Shown one piece after another: positions 13,139-24,159 of a stretch of 24,159 nucleotides of DNA (position 1 is the first letter of the stretch; every line of letters starts with the position of its first letter). The translations under genes and the position numbers were made by a program. This DNA comes from Deltaproteobacteria bacterium (GTDB lineage Bacteria; Desulfobacterota; Syntrophobacteria; B119-G9). Under the pieces are notes generated by a model that worked only from the letters and a program-made list of their open reading frames with translations, did no database searches and had not been told where the DNA came from. The stretch is from assembly GCA_003646715.1 (NCBI GenBank), contig QMLL01000001.1, positions 1 to 24,159 on the forward strand, written 5' to 3'.

Positions 13139-14026
13139 TTAGTCGTTTTTATAATCTGCAAGTATTTCTATGATCGGTGGTATAACTGTTCTTGCTATAT
13201 CAGCCCGCGACCCACCACCCAACACGACCTCTAGTTTACCACCGCAAAGTTCAAGCGAAAGCTCAACCATGAGCCTTGCAATGTTATTGTAGCATTCACC
13301 TGTTAAACCAAGATCTCCATAGTCACCTCGGTGAGTGTCAAAACCAAAGTACCAGAAAATCAGATCCGGCTTGAAGTTTCGTACGGCATCTGGAAAAACA
13401 GAGCAAACCTTATCAAAATATATTTCATTCTGACTTCTATCGTCTTTTTCCGTTCGCCCCCAGCCAAACCAACCGCTTCTCACAGCGACGTCAATTTTGG
13501 TGCCATCAGGGGATTTGTAGTCGTTATAACACATGCAAACGTGAAGCACGTCAGGATCATCTTTAACCAGGTCTCTTGTGCCGTCGCCGTGGTGTGCATC
13601 GGTGTCGAGAATAGCGAATTTCTTAACACCATAAATTTCTCGCAGTTTTGTAATGGTGATCACTACGTCGTTAAAACAGCAGTAACCGCCAAAATAGTCT
13701 CTCCCGGAGTGATGTCCACCGGCTCCTATAAAAGCGAACGCATTATCGATTTCCCCCGTCCATATTTTTTCTCCACCGAGAACAACACCTCCAGCCGAAT
13801 GCCACGCTGTGCTGCAAAGGTGGTCCGCCTGTACTCCAAGTATCAGTTCAGGCGTGTGTACTTTTAGAATCCACTCCTCTTCAAGGGGTGGAGATTCAAA
13901 CATTACTACATTTTCTCTCTGAAGAAGGTGCTCTATCGCCTCGGGAAAATCTTCAAGTCTGGTACCCTGAGTCAGGTAACTTCGCCTACTAAAGCTCGGG
14001 TGGTAAAAAATGCCGGTTTTTCTCAT
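13139..14026 (-). CDS. Histone deacetylase (HDAC/AcuC) fold Zn-dependent hydrolase, atypical
   Basis: GGHH, GYCCFND, DTDAHHGDG and GFDTH-GD are present. The usual EGGY motif is replaced by LGGGS. Confidence 0.88.
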   Translation of the reverse strand: MRKTGIFYHPSFSRRSYLTQGTRLEDFPEAIEHLLQRENVVMFESPPLEEEWILKVHTPELILGVQADHLCSTAWHSAGGVVLGGEKIWTGEIDNAFAFIGAGGHHSGRDYFGGYCCFNDVVITITKLREIYGVKKFAILDTDAHHGDGTRDLVKDDPDVLHVCMCYNDYKSPDGTKIDVAVRSGWFGWGRTEKDDRSQNEIYFDKVCSVFPDAVRNFKPDLIFWYFGFDTHRGDYGDLGLTGECYNNIARLMVELSLELCGGKLEVVLGGGSRADIARTVIPPIIEILADYKND

Positions 14027-14177: not shown

Positions 14178-14684
14178 ATGAAAGATTACTGGCAACCTTA
14201 TCTTGGCGGCGTAGCCCTCGGTTTTCTTCTTTTCTTTTCTTTTCTAATCTGCGGTAAGAGCGTAGGAGGCTCATCTTTTCTCACGCGACTGGCCGCGTAC
14301 TTTGTTCATATCGTTGCTCCATCTCATATAGAAAACTCAGCCTATTTTGGTCGATATTTTGCCGGCGCTAAAACACCTTTAAACTACTGGCTGGCCTATC
14401 TGGGTTATGGCACGTTTTTGGGAGGACTTGCATCTGCCTTTGTTCACGGCCGTTTAAAAATATCGATAGATAAAGGACCGAAGGTATCTCCCAAAGGCAG
14501 GCTGGCGCTGGCCATGTTTGGGGGTATCTTTGTCGGTTTCGCGTCAAGACTTGGGCTTGGTTGTACCAGCGGGCAGGGTTTAATTGGTGCCTCAATGCTG
14601 TCTGTTGGTTCATGGGTTTTCCTTTTTTCTGTGTTTTTAGGTGGATACGCAATTGCATATAGAGTCAGGGAAGGGTGGCTGTAA
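14178..14684 (+). CDS. YeeE/YedE-family sulfur-compound transporter, half-size subunit 1
   Basis: YW-PYLGG-ALG, four to five hydrophobic segments, GF-SRL-LGCTSGQ with the conserved Cys, and SD AAGGAG. Confidence 0.88.
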   Translation: MKDYWQPYLGGVALGFLLFFSFLICGKSVGGSSFLTRLAAYFVHIVAPSHIENSAYFGRYFAGAKTPLNYWLAYLGYGTFLGGLASAFVHGRLKISIDKGPKVSPKGRLALAMFGGIFVGFASRLGLGCTSGQGLIGASMLSVGSWVFLFSVFLGGYAIAYRVREGWL

Positions 14685-15292
14685 TGGGACCTGTAATAAA
14701 ATTAGCCGGGATGATAAATTCACCGGTAGACTTCTTTCTGGCTGTCTGTTTTGGTTTTTTCTTTGGATTTATCCTGGAAAGTTCGGGCCTTGCCAATTGC
14801 AGGAAGATAGCCGGAGTGTTTTACTTTTATGATGTTACCGTGGTTCAGGTAATGTTTACGGCAATTGTCACGGCAGTTCTTCTTCTCTATGGCACTTCAG
14901 CAATGGGTGTGCTGGATCTTTCACTTCTTTACGTACCCGATACATACATTTATTCTTATATACTTGCAGGCTTTATCCTCGGTGCAGGGATGGTTATGGG
15001 AGGCTACTGACCGGCCACATCTTTAACTGCCACGGCTGGCGGTCGGATCGACGGACTGTTCTTCGTAGTTGGAATAATGATCGGTTCCTGGCTTTTCTCA
15101 GAGCTTTTTACAATCATAAAACCAATCTATAAAGCGGGATCTCTGGGTAAATACTTTCTTTACCAATTATTCAATCTTCCGATCGGAGTTACGATTTTTA
15201 TTGTAACTCTGGCCGGACTCTGCTTTTTGTTCCTGTTTACTTTCCTTGAAACTCTTTTCGGAAAAAAGTTTGGAGGCAGCCGTGATTTATAA
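14684..15292 (+). CDS. YeeE/YedE-family transporter, half-size subunit 2, predicted selenoprotein (Sec109, TGA 15008-15010), 202 aa
   Basis: The ATG overlaps the upstream TAA (TAATG). ORFs 14675-15010 and 15077-15292 are in the same frame with only one TGA between them. The read-through sequence GMVMGGY-U-PATSL matches the family GxCPG(T/S) motif, and a SECIS-like hairpin follows. Confidence 0.85.
15008..15046 (+). promoter_or_regulatory. Bacterial SECIS element (YeeE-like gene)
   Basis: After the TGA: stem ACTGCCA (15026-15032)/TGGCGGT (15037-15043), loop CGGC with G at +24, and a possible lower helix CCGG/TCGG. Confidence 0.75.
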
Positions 15293-15677
15293 AAGGATAC
15301 TGATAGTTCTCATCTTAATAGCTTTGATTGTGGCAGGCTCACTGGCACTTTTGAAAAACAAAACTGTTTTGAGTGCACAATACAAGCGGTGTATGCAACT
15401 AACTAGCGAAGCGGATCAACTTTTCCTGAACAAAAAATACAAGGATGCCATAGAAAAATACAGGCAAGCTCTAATGATTGATCCGAAAAACCAGAAACTA
15501 TGGCAAAAGTTAATAGAAAGCATAAGAAAAGAAGCTTACTTGCAGGTTTCCGCTGCAAAACCCGCTATGATACCGCAGGTGACGAAACCTGAAACCAAAC
15601 CTGTTCAACCACAGGTCATAACACCTCCAGCACCATCTGAACCTTCCTTTGTGATTGAGGAAGACGAAGGCTGCTAA
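15282..15677 (+). CDS. Membrane-anchored protein with TPR-like repeat, Pro-rich linker and acidic C-terminus ending in Cys (-FVIEEDEGC), 131 aa
   Basis: GTG 15282 behind SD GGAGG (15272-15276), overlapping the upstream gene end. It has an N-terminal TM helix, ADQLF..KKYKDAIEKYRQALMIDP (TPR pattern) and a P/Q/T/V/K-rich linker. Confidence 0.8.
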   Translation: MIYKRILIVLILIALIVAGSLALLKNKTVLSAQYKRCMQLTSEADQLFLNKKYKDAIEKYRQALMIDPKNQKLWQKLIESIRKEAYLQVSAAKPAMIPQVTKPETKPVQPQVITPPAPSEPSFVIEEDEGC

Positions 15678-15683
15678 TCTTCC

Positions 15684-15715
15684 GTGGGAGACGTTCACAC
15701 GTCTCCCGTTCTTTG
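15684..15715 (+). terminator. Intrinsic terminator closing the yeeE-yeeE-TPR operon
   Basis: GGGAGACG-TTCACA-CGTCTCCC (15686-15707) followed by GTTCTTTG, directly after the stop codon. Confidence 0.7.
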
Positions 15716-15963
15716 TCTTCAGTTTTTCTCATGCATTGATTGGAAGGGGACCTTCCTGACTCTATCTATTCCTGTTTGATTGTTGACCAAAAGACCCTCA
15801 AAAAGCGTGAATTTCCCTAGATCCTAAATTTAACATAATATATCTTATCAGACGTTAATGATATGGAAAAAGATCCTTATGCCAACAAGATGCTTGAAAT
15901 AATTGGCCAGGATGACATTGTCTGGTAGTCCCTATTTACATGTCTGATCTCTAAAAAATCCTC

Positions 15964-16008: not shown

Positions 16009-16083
<75 letters not shown>

Positions 16084-17780: not shown

Positions 17781-18209
17781 TTATGCCGCTTTTTTCTCTT
17801 TCAGTGGCAACGGCCCGAGTTCTTTAATTTTCTCCACAAACTCGGTAATACTTTCAGCAAATCTGGGAGCTTCAGCTGAAGAAATCCATCGTAGGTGAAG
17901 TCGTTCTGGTTCAATGCCTGTGAACTGCAAAAGCTCCTTTAAGAAAGCCACCCTTTTGGTTGTCATATAATTACCATACAGGTAATGGCAGTCTCCGATG
18001 TGTCACCCACCGATAAAAACGCCATCGACCCCTTTCTGAAACGCCTTTAGCACATAATGAGGGGAAACGCTTGCGGAGCAGGGAACTCTTACTGTTCTTA
18101 CATTGGGTGGGTACTGAAGACGGCTTACTCCGGCGAGATCAGCTGCAGAATAAGCACACCAGTTGCAGAGAAACGCGACGATCCGGGGTTCATAATTGTC
18201 TTTGACCAT
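17781..18209 (-). CDS. mvhD: MvhD/FlpD-family [2Fe-2S] hydrogenase iron-sulfur subunit, predicted selenoprotein (Sec69), 142 aa
   Basis: FLCNWCAYSAADLAG...RVPCS...GG-U-HIGDCHY..GN...ERL...WISSAE. ORFs 18003-18209 and 17781-17966 are in frame across one TGA (18003-18005) at the conserved GCH-GDCHY Cys position, and a SECIS-like hairpin follows. Confidence 0.92.
17970..18005 (-). promoter_or_regulatory. Bacterial SECIS element (mvhD)
   Basis: On the minus strand after the TGA: stem ATTACC (+17..+22)/GGTAAT (+28..+33) and loop TGTAT with G at +24. Confidence 0.7.
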
Positions 18210-18765: not shown

Positions 18766-20526
18766 ATGTTTTTCAATGTCACACTTTACATTGTCTTAAC
18801 TATATTTGGTGTAGGGTTGATTTACAAGGTATCTACATGGTTTCGCTATAACATTGGAATTGTTGCAAGGGATATATCAACAGGTGAAAGGTTTGCTGCT
18901 GCCATTAAGGGCGTTTTTTCAACTTTTTTCAGCAGCAGAATCCTTACATTGCTGCGGGTATTCTTGGTGGATGTTCTTCTCCAGATGAGAACGTTGAAAG
19001 AAGATGGTCTGAGATGGATCATGCATATGCTCATCTACTGGGGCTTTATGCTTCTTCTACTTATGCATGCCCTTGACAAATTTATAACTTCTGTCCTCTT
19101 TCCTGACTACCAACCGACAATTAATCCTTTCCTCACTCTTCGAGATCTCTTTGGGGCAATGGTAATTGCAGGAATAGGTATTGCAATTTATAGACGCTTT
19201 ATCATGAAAGTCCCTCGCCTGAAAACTAATTCAATGGACTGCTACGCCATCGGCATAGTCGCCGTCATAATTATCTCAGGAATTTGCTTGCAAGCAACGA
19301 AAATTGTCTCTTACTCAAGCTACCAAAGTATGGTGGAAGAGTACACAACGATGCCTGAGGAAGACGAACTTAAGGCACTTGAGGCTTACTGGGTCCAGGA
19401 AATGGGTATGGTTTCTCCCACTACTAAGGGGCCGTTTAACAAGGAGCTTCTGGAAGCAGGTAAAGAGGCTTTCGAGATGAGCTGTGCCGAGTGCCATGCG
19501 CGAGAGCAATCCGCTTTCTTGAGCTATGGTCTTTCTCGGATAATTAAACCCTTGGCACTTGGTTTGGATAGTGCCAAGATTCCTATTCTACTCTGGTATA
19601 TACATTTTTTGGCGTGTTTTATTGGTTTGGCTTACCTCCCTTTCAGCAAGATGTTCCATATTATCGTGAGCCCACTGAGTATTTTGGCAAACGCGGTCAT
19701 GGATGATGAAACATCTGATCAGGCAAACATTGCAACCAAGCAAATCATGGATCTAGATGCCTGTACGCATTGTGGAACATGTACCACAAGATGTTCGGTT
19801 GCGATAGCTTTTGAAGAATTTCAGAATATAAACATTCTTCCTTCAGAGAAACTTATTGCAATAAAATCACTTGCTCGGGGGAAGGAGCTGTCGCCCGATG
19901 AGCTGAAGCTTCTCCAAGAAGGAGCCTATATTTGTACCAATTGCTATCGTTGTACTGTTGCGTGTCCCGTGGGTATTAACCTGCAAAGTATATGGTTCAG
20001 CGTGAGAGAGGGCCTTCTCGAGAAGGGTTATCCCGAGCTCTCGGTGCTTTCACAACTTTCCTTTTACCGAGGTTTAATGCAGAGAAAGATTGTTGCTGAT
20101 GAGTACCGGGAACCTCTACAAGAGGCAAGAGAGGCGATCTCTGAGAAGTGCGAATTAATGAAGGCTAAAGAGAAGCCTATCAATGTGACGACAGCAAGCA
20201 AAAAGCTAAGATCGGAATTGAGTCTTTCCAGCCAGGCAAGTACCTTTTCGGTCTGCTTTGCCTGTGAGACATGTACAACAGTATGTCCTGTGGTAGCAAG
20301 CTACGAGAATCCGCAAGAAGCCCTCGGCATGCTCCCCCATCAAATCATGAATGCCTGTGCTCTGGGGGTGCGGGATCTGGCTTTCGGGTCGAACATGCTG
20401 TGGGATTGTGTAACATGCTATCAATGCCAAGAGCAATGTCCCCAAGGGGTAGCAGTTACGGATGTACTCTATGAACTAAAAAATTTGGCTATCAAGAGTG
20501 TAAAACTAACATTGGCAACAAAGTAA
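18766..20526 (+). CDS. Membrane redox fusion: NarI/HmeC/DsrM-like di-heme b domain with inserted CxxCH heme c motif, fused to two HdrC-like di-[4Fe-4S] domains
   Basis: Five hydrophobic helices with His pairs (H-x13-H and H-x17-H), CAECH at 19483-19497, and four ferredoxin motifs: CTHCGTCTTRC, CTNCYRCTVACP, CFACETCTTVCP and CVTCYQCQEQCP. Confidence 0.85.
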   Translation: MFFNVTLYIVLTIFGVGLIYKVSTWFRYNIGIVARDISTGERFAAAIKGVFSTFFSSRILTLLRVFLVDVLLQMRTLKEDGLRWIMHMLIYWGFMLLLLMHALDKFITSVLFPDYQPTINPFLTLRDLFGAMVIAGIGIAIYRRFIMKVPRLKTNSMDCYAIGIVAVIIISGICLQATKIVSYSSYQSMVEEYTTMPEEDELKALEAYWVQEMGMVSPTTKGPFNKELLEAGKEAFEMSCAECHAREQSAFLSYGLSRIIKPLALGLDSAKIPILLWYIHFLACFIGLAYLPFSKMFHIIVSPLSILANAVMDDETSDQANIATKQIMDLDACTHCGTCTTRCSVAIAFEEFQNINILPSEKLIAIKSLARGKELSPDELKLLQEGAYICTNCYRCTVACPVGINLQSIWFSVREGLLEKGYPELSVLSQLSFYRGLMQRKIVADEYREPLQEAREAISEKCELMKAKEKPINVTTASKKLRSELSLSSQASTFSVCFACETCTTVCPVVASYENPQEALGMLPHQIMNACALGVRDLAFGSNMLWDCVTCYQCQEQCPQGVAVTDVLYELKNLAIKSVKLTLATK

Positions 20527-20540
20527 ATGGGAAGAGAGCT

Positions 20541-21461
20541 ATGAAATTTGCGCTTTTTTTGGGATGCAATATTCCGGCCCGGGTAAAACAATACGAATCC
20601 TCAGCGCGAGCTGTCTTGGAAAACCTTGGGGTTGAAATCTTCGACATAAGGGAGTTTAATTGCTGCGGATATCCCTTGAGGAACCTTGATTTCAAGGCTT
20701 TTGTCCTTGCCTCAGCCAAGAACCTTGCACTTGCAGCACGGGAGAACCTTAATCTATTGACACTTTGCAAGTGTTGTTATGGAAGCTTGAAGAAAGTGGA
20801 TCACTTAATGAGGGAAAACCAGTCTTTACGAGATGAAATAAACGCTATCCTTAAAAAAGAAGACCTGAAATATGATGGTGGGCTGCAGGTAAAACACTTT
20901 CTCACTGTCCTTTTCCACGATGTTGGAATTGGTTCGATCGCGAAACGAGTGACGAAACGTTTTGACGGCCTTAACATTGCTACCCACTATGGATGCCATG
21001 CCCTCCGACCTAGTAAAATAGTTGAATTCGATGATCCCGTGAAACCCTCTTTATTTGAGAAACTCGTCGAATTGACCGGGGCTAAAAGTATAGATTGGAA
21101 GGCCAAGCTGGATTGCTGCGGTGCTCCGCTACTTGGTGTAAACGATGAGCTTTCAATGAGACTCATGCAAAAGAAGCTGAAAGATGGGAAAGAATCTGGT
21201 GCAGATTATTTATGCGTAGCCTGTCCGTATTGCCAGCTCCAATTTGATTCCGTACAGCGAATGATGTTGGAAAAGCAACATACCAACACCCAGCTTCCAT
21301 CAATCCTATATCCTCAACTTCTTGGTCTCACAATGGGTCTTGATAGTACGTCCCTTGGATTAGACGAAAATCAGCTACCGATCAATGGGATCATGAAGTA
21401 TTTCCCTGAACCCGAGGCAGAAGAAAAGGAAGAAGAAAATGAGGAAAAAGAGGACAAATAG
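20541..21461 (+). CDS. hdrB: Heterodisulfide reductase subunit B family (two CCG domains)
   Basis: FLGC, NCCG, CKCC, YGCH, DCCG and ACPYCQ-QFD, followed by an acidic tail. Confidence 0.93.
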   Translation: MKFALFLGCNIPARVKQYESSARAVLENLGVEIFDIREFNCCGYPLRNLDFKAFVLASAKNLALAARENLNLLTLCKCCYGSLKKVDHLMRENQSLRDEINAILKKEDLKYDGGLQVKHFLTVLFHDVGIGSIAKRVTKRFDGLNIATHYGCHALRPSKIVEFDDPVKPSLFEKLVELTGAKSIDWKAKLDCCGAPLLGVNDELSMRLMQKKLKDGKESGADYLCVACPYCQLQFDSVQRMMLEKQHTNTQLPSILYPQLLGLTMGLDSTSLGLDENQLPINGIMKYFPEPEAEEKEEENEEKEDK

Positions 21462-21592: not shown

Positions 21593-24159
21593 ATGACCCA
21601 GAGTAAGATTGGATCAGTAATGGTTGTAGGTGGTGGAATTGCAGGGATGCAAGCCTCTTTGGATCTCGCCGATTCAGGATTTTACGTCTACTTGGTGGAA
21701 AGATCCCCATCTATAGGGGGACTCATGTCTCAGCTGGACAAGACCTTCCCCACCAATGACTGTGCCATGTGAATTATCTCTCCCAAACTGGTCGAGGTCG
21801 GCCGGCATCTCAACATTGAGCTTCTCACCCTGTCGGAAGTCAAGGACGTGTCAGGAGAGGAAGGGAATTTTGAAGTCACCCTTGTCCAGCATCCGCGTTA
21901 TGTGGATGTAGACAAGTGTATTGCTTGCGGGACATGTGCTGAGAAGTGCCCGCGTAAAGTTGATAATGAATATGATGCAGGGCTTAGTAAGAGGAAGGCA
22001 ATATATGTTAAGTATCCGCAAGCTGTCCCACTCAAATATGCCATCGATGCTGATCACTGCATCTACTTTCAAAAGAAAAAGTGTAAGGCATGTGAGAAAT
22101 TCTGCCCTACAGGAGCCATATTGTTTGACGACAAGCCGAAGGAGTTAAACATAAAGGTCGGGTCGATAATTATGGCTGCCGGAGTAGACGTTTTTAACCC
22201 GGTGATCCGCGATATTTACGGCTATCGCAACTCACCCAATGTTGTTACCAGTCTTGAATTTGAAAGGATACTTTCTGCTACAGGGCCTTACGGAGGGCAC
22301 CTTGTAAGACCATCTGACAAGAAAGAACCACAGAAGATAGCATGGATCCAATGTGTGGGATCCAGAGATGTTCACGAGGGGGCCAAATCGTATTGCTCGG
22401 CAGTCTGCTGTACTTATGCCATAAAAGAGGCCATTGTGGCCAAGGAGCATAGCAAGAACGGTCTTGATGCGGCTATTTATTACATTGACCTCCGGACCCA
22501 TGGAAAGGATTTCGAAAGATACTATTACAGGGCGAGAGATGAAGCAGGAGTCCGTTTTATAAAATCGAGGATCTCGAACATAACACCTGTAAGGGATACA
22601 GGGAATCTCATCATCAGGCATGTTGATGAATCTGGACGAAGAGTTGAAGAAGAATTTGATATGGTCGTTTTGTCTGTAGGGCTCTGCGTCAGTGATAAAA
22701 CCCTTGCGTTGGCAGAGAAACTTGGCGTGCAACTCGATCCGCACCATTTTGTAGCCACCAACAGTTTCGAACCTGTTAAAACCTCCAGACCAGGAATCTT
22801 CACGTGCGGTGCCCTTGAAAGTCCCAAAGATATTCCTCAGTCGGTGATTGAGTCCAGCGCCTGTGCAGCTGTAGTAGAAAGCACCCTGGCTGAGGTCCGT
22901 GGGACAATGACGAGAACAAAGGAAATTCCTCAAGAGATCGATGTGAGCGGGCAACCTCCTCGAATAGGCGTATTTGTGTGTCACTGCGGGACAAACATTG
23001 CGGGTATAGTAAATATTGACGAGGTAGTTGAATACGCCAAAAGCTTACCAGGGGTTGTCTTTGTAGAGAGCAATCTCTTTTCTTGTTCCCAGGACACTCA
23101 AGAGAAAATGACAAAAGTTATTGAAGAACAAAATCTCAACAGGGTAGTGGTGGCAGCATGCACACCAAGGACTCACGAACCATTGTTTCAGGAAACACTG
23201 GTAAATGCGGGAATCAACAAGTATCTATTCGAAATGGTGAATATTCGAAACCAATGTTCTTGGGTGCACAGCGATGATCCCGAAGCAGCTACGGAGAAAG
23301 CAAAGGATCTGTTAAGGATGGCTGTGGCAAAGGTTGGTCTGTTAGAACCGTTGGCGCAACCGGTAATAGAAATAACTCAATCTGCCTTGGTTATAGGTGG
23401 GGGTATCGCGGGAATGGCTGCCGCGAAAAATCTTGCAGAGCAAGGGTACCACGTGTACCTGATTGAAAAGAGCGATACTTTGGGGGGACAGGCTCGCAAG
23501 TTGCACGAGACATGGCAGGGAGAAAGTGTCCGTCAAAATCTTACAAACCTTATCGGTGAAATACAAGAATCGGGGAATATAGAGGTCTTTCTTAAAACCG
23601 AATTGACCCATGTTGAGGGATTTGTTGGGAATTTCAAGTCCACCATACGTTGCAATGATGAAGAGAAGGTGCTTGAGCACGGGGTAGCCATTATTGCTAC
23701 GGGAGCATCTGAACTCAAACCGGATGGCTATCTCTATGGAGAGGACCCGAGGGTTTTAACGGGCTTAGAATTGGACGAGAGACTCATTAAAAATGATGCC
23801 TCTCTAAGGGATGTAAAGTCAGCTGTTTTTGTCCAATGCGTGGGCTCAAGAATACCCGAGAGGCCATATTGTTCTAAGGTTTGTTGCACCCATTCGATCA
23901 AGAATGCTCTCGAATTGAAAAAAATCAATCCTGAGATTGAAGTCTTTATTGTATATAGGGACATAAGAACTTACGGTCTTCGAGAAGAGCTGTATCGAGA
24001 AGCAAGAGAGAAAGGAATCATCTTCGTTCGATATGATTTTGATAAAGGAATAGCGGTTAGGAGAGCTGGAGATGAGCTTCAAATAGCTTTCACCGGGTAT
24101 ATCCTTAAAAGAGAAATTACCATTCAAGCTGATATGGTTATCCTCGCAAGTGCTATCGT
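21593..24159 (+). CDS. hdrA: Large HdrA-family flavoprotein with duplicated FAD modules, predicted selenoprotein (Sec60, TGA 21770-21772); 3'-truncated by the window; absent from the ORF track
   Basis: ATG 21593, [27 protein letters not shown], two ferredoxin motifs, QCVGSRD...YCS-VCC, an internal [15 protein letters not shown] domain, a second GGGIAGM (from 23396) and a second QCVGSR...YCSKVCC. By hand translation the frame is open to the window end apart from the single TGA. Confidence 0.93.
21770..21805 (+). promoter_or_regulatory. Bacterial SECIS element (hdrA)
   Basis: After the TGA: stem CTGGTCG (21788-21794)/CGGCCGG (21799-21805) and loop AGGT with G at +24. Confidence 0.78.

Follow-up and report, generated by a model that had tools for sequence, protein, structure and literature searches.

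A selenocysteine codon in the conserved cysteine column of a two-gene YeeE/YedE-type transporter from a Desulfobacterota genome

Adjacent genes at positions 14178 to 15292 of contig QMLL01000001.1 (assembly GCA_003646715.1, Deltaproteobacteria bacterium; Desulfobacterota, Syntrophobacteria, B119-G9) were analyzed within the stretch that we call the window, which comprises positions 1 to 24,159 of the forward strand (24,159 nucleotides). The two genes very probably encode the halves of a heterodimeric YeeE/YedE-type channel for reduced sulfur in which, judging from sequence comparison, the UGA codon at 15008 is decoded as selenocysteine (Sec) through a downstream hairpin. The second gene of the pair is a real selenoprotein gene that has been mis-annotated, and both its Sec site and the subunit that carries it appear to be new within a family that was already catalogued as containing selenoproteins.

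Gene 1 (14178-14684, plus strand) encodes subunit 1, a protein of 168 residues that contains the motif GLGCTSGQG at residues 126-134 and corresponds to the C-terminal half of YeeE in its single-chain form. Gene 2 (14684-15292, plus strand) encodes subunit 2, of 202 residues with one TGA read through, which is the counterpart of the N-terminal half. The TGA occupies positions 15008-15010 of the same strand, corresponds to residue 109 and stands in the context GGY-TGA-PATS, the peptide spanning the site being GGY-U-PATSLTATAGGR. Beyond it the frame of gene 2 is open for 93 sense codons, up to a TAA at 15290-15292. A ribosome-binding site (GAAGGAG) lies upstream of gene 1, and the ATG of gene 2 at 14684 overlaps the TAA stop codon of gene 1 in the form TAATG. 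A first-pass annotation of this DNA, made from the sequence alone, had described a split YeeE/YedE transporter with Cys in its first gene and a Sec codon in its second, a description that our analysis upholds; the open, transporter-like frame that it reported after the TGA is likewise present, though one codon shorter than the 94 that it counted.

Family membership and the selenocysteine column

Both products belong to the family represented by the Pfam model Sulf_transp (PF04143), for which the gathering cut-off is 27 bits. The model matches subunit 1 with 63.2 bits over profile positions 175-309, in its C-terminal half, and subunit 2 with 44 bits over residues 46-186, where its N-terminal half runs across the TGA; subunit 2 also matches DUF6691 at 25.8 bits. 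None of the three genomes of the genus contains a PF04143 system other than this pair. The pair is a native two-gene YeeE/YedE-type transporter and not a broken gene.

In an alignment of 15 sequences of subunit 2 (A1), the column that holds the TGA is occupied by Cys in 12 of the 12 rows from outside the genus, within a G-x-C-P-G-T motif of which C109, P110 and T112 are invariant in the alignment. The first-pass observation that subunit 1 carries GCTSG and that the TGA of subunit 2 falls at the Cys of a GxCP motif is borne out. The alternation between Cys and TGA that it had proposed to look for at this column is also found: a motif scan of 57 extracted subunit 2 genes, with which the tblastn alignments agree, places Cys at the motif position in 45 of them and TGA in the remaining 12.

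Reality of the in-frame TGA

The TGA at 15008-15010 is genuine. The genome from which it comes is a fragmented metagenome-assembled genome (MAG) of 559 contigs with 68.7% completeness, a circumstance in which a sequencing or assembly error, or a nonsense mutation confined to one strain, might be suspected. However, contigs at least 99% identical to the locus and derived from four metagenome runs, belonging to four different studies of vent, marine and sediment material, cover the codon without any variant, and the only differences reported among them are located at 14395, 14681, 15383 and 15467. The reads thus support TGA, and not the TGC or TGT that had been named as a possible sign of error. 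The codon is also kept in both of the other MAGs of the genus (G001 and G002), whose full-length subunit 2 matches are 78-83% identical in protein and whose subunit 1 is 78-80% identical, and in a scaffold of a relative from ENA (L096). Error or private mutation is thereby refuted as an explanation, and we assign it practically no probability.

The ENA scaffold shows a peculiarity of its own. In its positions 182-1000, a T6-G6-A-T8 homopolymer marks an in-frame junction of the N-terminal part of subunit 1 with subunit 2, which reflects either a deletion or a misassembly. In spite of this junction, the scaffold retains the TGA, the same hairpin (with the loop CGGG) and the gene for the tail protein with possible tetratricopeptide repeats (TPR) described below.

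A genuine TGA might still be a true stop, in which case subunit 2 would be either a decaying pseudogene or two small genes, one of 108 residues and the other an open reading frame (ORF) that starts at ATG 15077. ORF calling with translation table 11 does yield exactly these fragments (14675-15010 and 15077-15292), and standard pipelines split the gene as the first-pass annotation had anticipated, with public gene calls for the relatives cut at the TGA (P0115 stops at GGY). Moreover, TGA acts as the ordinary stop codon of the DUF3047 and GATase genes of the same window, so that it has not been reassigned in this genome. Against a true stop stand the Pfam match that continues over the codon, the location of the codon in the invariant Cys column of the family, the recurrence of TGA in that same column in three other families, and the fact that the pair is the sole PF04143 system of the genus. 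To these must be added the conservation of frame and length in four relatives despite the saturation of synonymous sites. Taken with the selection data given next, they leave the true-stop explanation very improbable.

Selection after the TGA and the downstream hairpin

Among the three genomes of the genus, the proportion of synonymous differences (pS) ranges from 0.69 to 0.82 and is therefore saturated, whereas the proportion of nonsynonymous differences (pN) after the TGA is only 0.16-0.20, which gives a pN/pS of about 0.2 and shows that this part of the gene is under purifying selection. Neither frameshifts nor further stop codons occur in it in any of the three genomes, and the 22 codons between the TGA and ATG 15077 are the best-conserved part of gene 2. 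The relaxed selection or frameshifts that the first-pass annotation had listed as possible objections are accordingly not observed.

A hairpin of the type of bacterial selenocysteine insertion sequences (SECIS) is located at 15026-15043 on the plus strand. It begins 15 nt past the UGA, spans positions +18 to +35 and has the sequence ACUGCCA-CGGC-UGGCGGU, with a 7-bp stem (15026-15032 paired with 15037-15043) and a 4-nt loop, CGGC, at 15033-15036. The hdrA gene of the same window, which also contains a Sec codon, presents a hairpin at 21788-21805 with a 7-bp stem, a 4-nt loop and the identical offset of +18 to +35, while the hairpin of mvhD, another Sec-containing gene of the window, has a 6-bp stem and lies one base further along. 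The first-pass statement that the geometry is the same as in hdrA and mvhD is thus exact for hdrA and only approximate for mvhD.

The hairpin is constrained at the RNA level. Of its 6 four-fold synonymous sites, 5 do not vary among the three genomes, whereas outside it the same holds for 19 of 137 in the two genes (Fisher p=4.9e-4). The sole variable site is a U to C change opposite a G, in which the pair is kept. When the ENA scaffold is added, 28 of 28 hairpin pair cells remain paired, and the amino-acid change found in that scaffold sits in the loop.

Several results weigh against decoding of the UGA through this hairpin and have to be set beside those above. No compensatory double change occurs in the hairpin across the four relatives, the only change being the single U-G to C-G one. 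Over the 68 nt that follow the UGA, folding is no stronger than in shuffled sequences (z=0.51). For the 45 nt from +4 to +48, the mean folding energy is -13.8 kcal/mol in Sec forms (n=12) and -15.9 kcal/mol in Cys forms (n=45; Mann-Whitney p=0.96), so that it does not distinguish the two, which may be due to the GC-richer sequence visible in many of the Cys forms. A scan of the window with Rfam returned just a tRNA and zero matches to SECIS families, and none of the RNA runs searched for the locus contains it. Lastly, the MAG of the window, with its completeness of 68.7%, yielded neither selB nor selD above cut-off. Folding energy is accordingly not used in the case for a SECIS-type element, which is made from the position of the hairpin, its likeness to that of hdrA and the constraint on its synonymous sites.

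With regard to the Sec machinery, whose presence had been proposed as a check, the same MAG does contain selA (634 bits) and a tRNA-Sec (66.8 bits), and the congener G001, which is 94% complete, contains both selB (374.7 bits) and selD (380.8 bits). The genus hence possesses the Sec machinery, and we attribute the failure to find selB and selD in the MAG of the window to its probable cause, incompleteness, since the congener has both. The selD gene of this congener itself contains one TGA.

Distribution of cysteine and selenocysteine forms

The comparison was extended to a class sample of 122 genomes and to an even phylum sample of 401 genomes. The class sample contains two two-gene subfamilies, here termed type A and type B. 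Type A, to which the pair of the window belongs, is characterized by GCTSGQ in subunit 1 and G-[WYF]-C-P-G-T in subunit 2; type B presents G-[GD]-[U/C]-P-S-G-H-G in subunit 1 and GYCPGTS, with its Cys kept, in subunit 2. Most of the type B loci recovered, which belong mainly to family f3, have a TGA at the motif of subunit 1 (GG-U-PSGHG), and three loci of f4 and f5 have Cys there. The TGA-bearing type B loci in relatives of the class are L021, L023-L025, L027-L029, L031-L033 and L061.

Within the class sample, a TGA in subunit 2 of type A occurs only in the genus of the window. The phylum sample adds nine more type A subunit 2 genes with TGA in exactly the same column, or about 9 of 25 type A matches, and these come from families f18 (GL-U-PGTS), f51 and f62 (GGY-U-PGT). 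The partner subunit 1 of every TGA-bearing type A subunit 2 has Cys at its motif, and no pair with Sec in both subunits was seen. Each Sec clade has a hairpin of its own, with a G-containing loop, about 20-28 nt past the UGA. On a maximum-likelihood tree, the Sec forms fall in four clades that need four state changes, at least three of which are forced by well-supported branches; the genus of the window stands on a long branch, which leaves its precise sister group uncertain. Cys forms, some of them from Bacteroidota, make up the greater part of the subfamily.

Two other TGA-bearing matches were dismissed as Sec candidates. The TGA in G008 (L062, G008:C6) stands where a Trp codon is conserved, in a second copy that is probably a broken gene, and the one in G046 is simply a stop codon. 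Two further codons are recorded as side observations. In a type-B-like subunit 2 (L087, G438:C85), a TGA stands at GML-U-VHLL, outside the Cys column, and a relative in f76 (L091, about 2327-2365) has an in-frame TGA in the linker of its fused tail, just before the final FRFEIVEDEGC and at a position where relatives have Gly; the latter may represent a stop codon, an error or a further case of recoding.

The partner module

The third gene of the operon (gene 3, 15282-15677, plus strand) begins with a GTG that overlaps the end of subunit 2 and encodes a membrane anchor, a possible TPR region, a linker rich in Pro and Gln, and the C-terminus ...IEEDEGC. The TPR matches are marginal, since all five are under the Pfam curated cut-offs (the best with 24.9 against 26.8 bits). 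The gene is kept in the genus and in the ENA scaffold.

Counterparts of this protein accompany nearly every type A pair, in the form of a membrane-anchored product with a Gly-Cys end (DEGC, GGCG, KGC, EEGC or QFGC) that is encoded next to the pair or fused to it. The closest relatives with the Cys form, those of f76, have this DEGC tail as part of subunit 2, to which an additional helix connects it. Fusions of subunit 2 to rhodanese domains occur in f6, with three domains (180.7 bits), and in L038 and L040, with one each. In f18, f51 and f50, the gene that comes next specifies an anchored rhodanese whose C-terminal end reads GGCG, KGC or GGCS; in f62 and Campylobacterota, it specifies a short anchored linker with a Gly-Cys end. 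Besides 15282-15677 of the window, the loci with partners of this kind are L088-L090, L077-L085, L093-L095, L037 and L039, several of which include a rhodanese domain.

The product of gene 3 is a probable carrier-arm partner of the pair. The consistent association of sulfurtransferase domains and terminal-Cys arms with these pairs constitutes the main evidence that the system moves sulfur and hands it to a carrier Cys.

Substrate of the putative channel

A different proposal accepts the selenoprotein and concerns its function only, namely that the channel serves a selenium compound (selenite, selenide or selenosulfate), in the manner of the YedE/FdhT branch. It finds some support in the NCBIfam models, given that the best match of subunit 1 is the YedE/FdhT model of selenium metabolism and that subunit 2 matches TIGR04112, as well as in the heavy reliance of the organism on Sec (hdrA and mvhD in the window, selD in the congener) and in the fact that this is its only YeeE-family system. 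However, the pair reaches on these models only 39.5 bits where the cut-off is 350 (NF033796) and 23.5 bits where it is 200 (TIGR04112), far from membership. The relatives, moreover, are fused to or trailed by rhodanese sulfurtransferase domains, the locus has neither selD nor selA nor yedF as a neighbour in the window, and the predominance of Cys forms in the subfamily, Bacteroidota included, also speaks against a selenium substrate. We regard this proposal as improbable, although considerably less so than a true stop at the TGA, and the related suggestion of the first-pass annotation, that Sec might shift specificity towards selenite or selenosulfate, is not supported by our analysis.

A reduced-sulfur substrate has its own difficulties. 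The models for thiosulfate uptake by TsuA/YeeE (NF041049 and NF052577) reach only 18.9-26.5 bits on the pair against cut-offs of 400-645, and the operon contains no partner gene of the TusA/YeeD kind.

Position in the YeeE structure and proposed mechanism

Searches of solved structures with the single sequences of both subunits gave no match to YeeE, and profiles were required. The profile of subunit 2 (A1) matches residues 2-184 of PDB entries 6leo/8j4c (E=4e-12), and that of subunit 1 (A2) matches residues 232-330 of 8j4c/6leo (E=6e-12). Counted along the profile alignment to Spirochaeta thermophila YeeE (StYeeE), Sec109 of subunit 2 corresponds to C91 and Cys129 of subunit 1 to C293. The column aligned with C22 holds Ala in the subunit 2 studied here, and Ser or Ala in most members of the subfamily.

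In StYeeE, C22, C91 and C293 stand in line about 7 A apart at the thinnest part of an hourglass, with C91 in the middle (PMC7449682). Both C91 and C293 are essential for thiosulfate uptake, and C22 and C91 are able to form a disulfide; the C22A variant still complements (PMC7449682).

Two Cys residues are specific to the genus: Cys39 of subunit 2 (14798-14800, LANCRK), two residues after the C22-equivalent column, and Cys25 of subunit 1 (14250-14252, FLICGK). The remaining type A members carry Leu, Ala or Ser in these places. One of these residues may act as the resolving partner of Sec.

The selenol group combines a low pKa with high nucleophilicity and would favour fast, reversible Se-S exchange. 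In the mechanism that we propose, the two products would pair like the two halves of YeeE, and thiosulfate or sulfane sulfur would enter at the side of Cys129 to be taken over by Sec109. The selenol of Sec109 would act as the stronger nucleophile in a covalent relay in which the outer Cys would be the first station, Sec109 the central one and the terminal Cys of the gene 3 product, tethered to the membrane, the last. In the absence of selenium, only the 108-residue fragment of subunit 2 would be made; that the full transporter would be produced only when selenium is available, as the first-pass annotation proposed, is a reasonable expectation. Because none of the three genomes of the genus has a second PF04143 system, the function would depend on the selenium supply. 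Sulfur acquisition would in this way be tied to selenium supply in bacteria that cycle sulfur in sediments and vents.

Sec is normally selected where Cys serves as a nucleophile or redox centre. The recurrent Sec at the C91 position, and at C293 in the sister subfamily, thus bears on whether the pore Cys residues perform chemistry on the substrate or only form hydrogen bonds with it. The current model of YeeE holds that thiosulfate is guided by hydrogen bonds, whereas the repeated replacement of Cys by Sec at the central pore residue would mean that sulfur passes covalently through channels of the YeeE type. We put forward only tentatively, as the less probable of these two views, that such channels in general pass sulfur from an outer Cys to a central Cys or Sec and from there to the terminal Cys of a swinging arm, instead of merely guiding thiosulfate. 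If a covalent relay of this kind were true, it would define a three-component membrane sulfur-relay system.

Comparison with known systems and database records

The family YeeE/YedE (PF04143) is already listed as a predicted prokaryotic selenoprotein family, with the motif GUxSG and WP_012471001.1 as example, and it is grouped there with other Sec-containing transporter subunits (PMC13188914, PMC9312934). The supplement of Peng et al. 2016 counts a YeeE/YedE selenoprotein in five organisms; the main texts of the primary papers cited for it make no mention of YeeE, which was found in the supplement table only. The novelty that the first-pass annotation had implied is reduced by these records, as it is by the same-column Sec in 9 of about 25 comparable genes of the phylum sample. 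The catalogued protein and the one described here share the Pfam family, their status as predicted membrane selenoproteins and the presence of Sec in place of a conserved pore Cys. On the other hand, the catalogued G-U-x-S-G does not fit the G-Y-U-P-A-T-S of the window. It does fit subunit 1 of type B (GG-U-PSG, at the C293 position), whose subunit 2 keeps Cys, an arrangement that the pair of the window reverses, with Cys in subunit 1 and Sec in subunit 2 at the C91 position. Proteins of 174 residues of the type B subunit 1 kind are present in Geobacter and Pelobacter. Judging from these motifs, what has been catalogued is most likely the form of the sister subfamily, in which Sec lies in the opposite subunit and takes the place of C293. 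Our literature search found no paper on Sec at the C91 position, on the two-gene context or on the partner arm.

Among full-length entries of the protein collection searched, those most similar are Cys forms with at most 51% identity, and no full-length record from the genus of the window was found. Annotation cuts the gene at its TGA, so that the only YeeE-family transporter of the genus seems to be missing. This annotation error also affects roughly a third of the comparable genes in the Desulfobacterota sample, and in the sister subfamily it extends to many entries for subunit 1 of type B in that collection, which have 132 residues and end at the TGA.

Another known system is YeeE (TsuA), which works with YeeD (TsuB) in Spirochaeta thermophila and E. 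coli (PDB 6LEO, 6LEP, 8J4C). It shares with the pair its fold family and the occupation of the C91 and C293 positions, here by Sec and Cys, respectively. Unlike YeeE, which is one chain with a topology-reversing helix, H7, the system of the window consists of two half-size genes, has Sec at the C91 position and shows Ala at the C22 column with the genus-specific Cys two residues on; it also lacks a TusA-like YeeD gene, the place of which is taken by the tethered protein with the Gly-Cys end.

Two further comparisons can be drawn. Systems of the PmpA/PmpB type (Pfam DUF6691 and Sulf_transp) consist of adjacent half-size YeeE/YedE genes that make one YeeE-like unit and, as described, contain only Cys; the pair of the window resembles that description in its adjacent half-size genes and differs from it in its Sec. 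SoxY carries sulfur on a C-terminal swinging arm with the sequence GGCGG. The product of gene 3 and its counterparts similarly end in a flexible linker followed by Gly-Cys or Gly-Gly-Cys-Gly, but they have no sequence or fold relationship to SoxY, their arm is anchored in the membrane or fused to the transporter, and their role as carriers is putative.

Operon layout and neighbouring genes

The three genes form a plus-strand operon between a divergent deacetylase gene (13139-14026, minus strand) and a tRNA (16009-16080). It is closed by a terminator-like hairpin at 15686-15719 (plus strand), read directly from the sequence as GGGAGACG / CGTCTCCC, which is GC-rich and is followed by a T-rich run. 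The neighbours of the operon in the window are unrelated to it, and selD, selA and yedF do not adjoin it.

As mentioned above, two other genes of the window, which served as internal controls for the SECIS-type hairpin, contain Sec codons, namely mvhD (17781-18209, minus strand; TGA at 18005-18003), which reaches 189 bits on FlpD with its TGA read through, and hdrA (21593-24157, plus strand; TGA at 21770-21772), in which the TGA lies in the known CxxU context. The region between them (18766-21461) encodes a membrane-bound protein of 586 residues with multiple 4Fe-4S motifs and a CCG-domain (HdrB-like) protein, and these genes form, together with mvhD and hdrA, an electron-transfer cluster of the Hdr/Mvh type.

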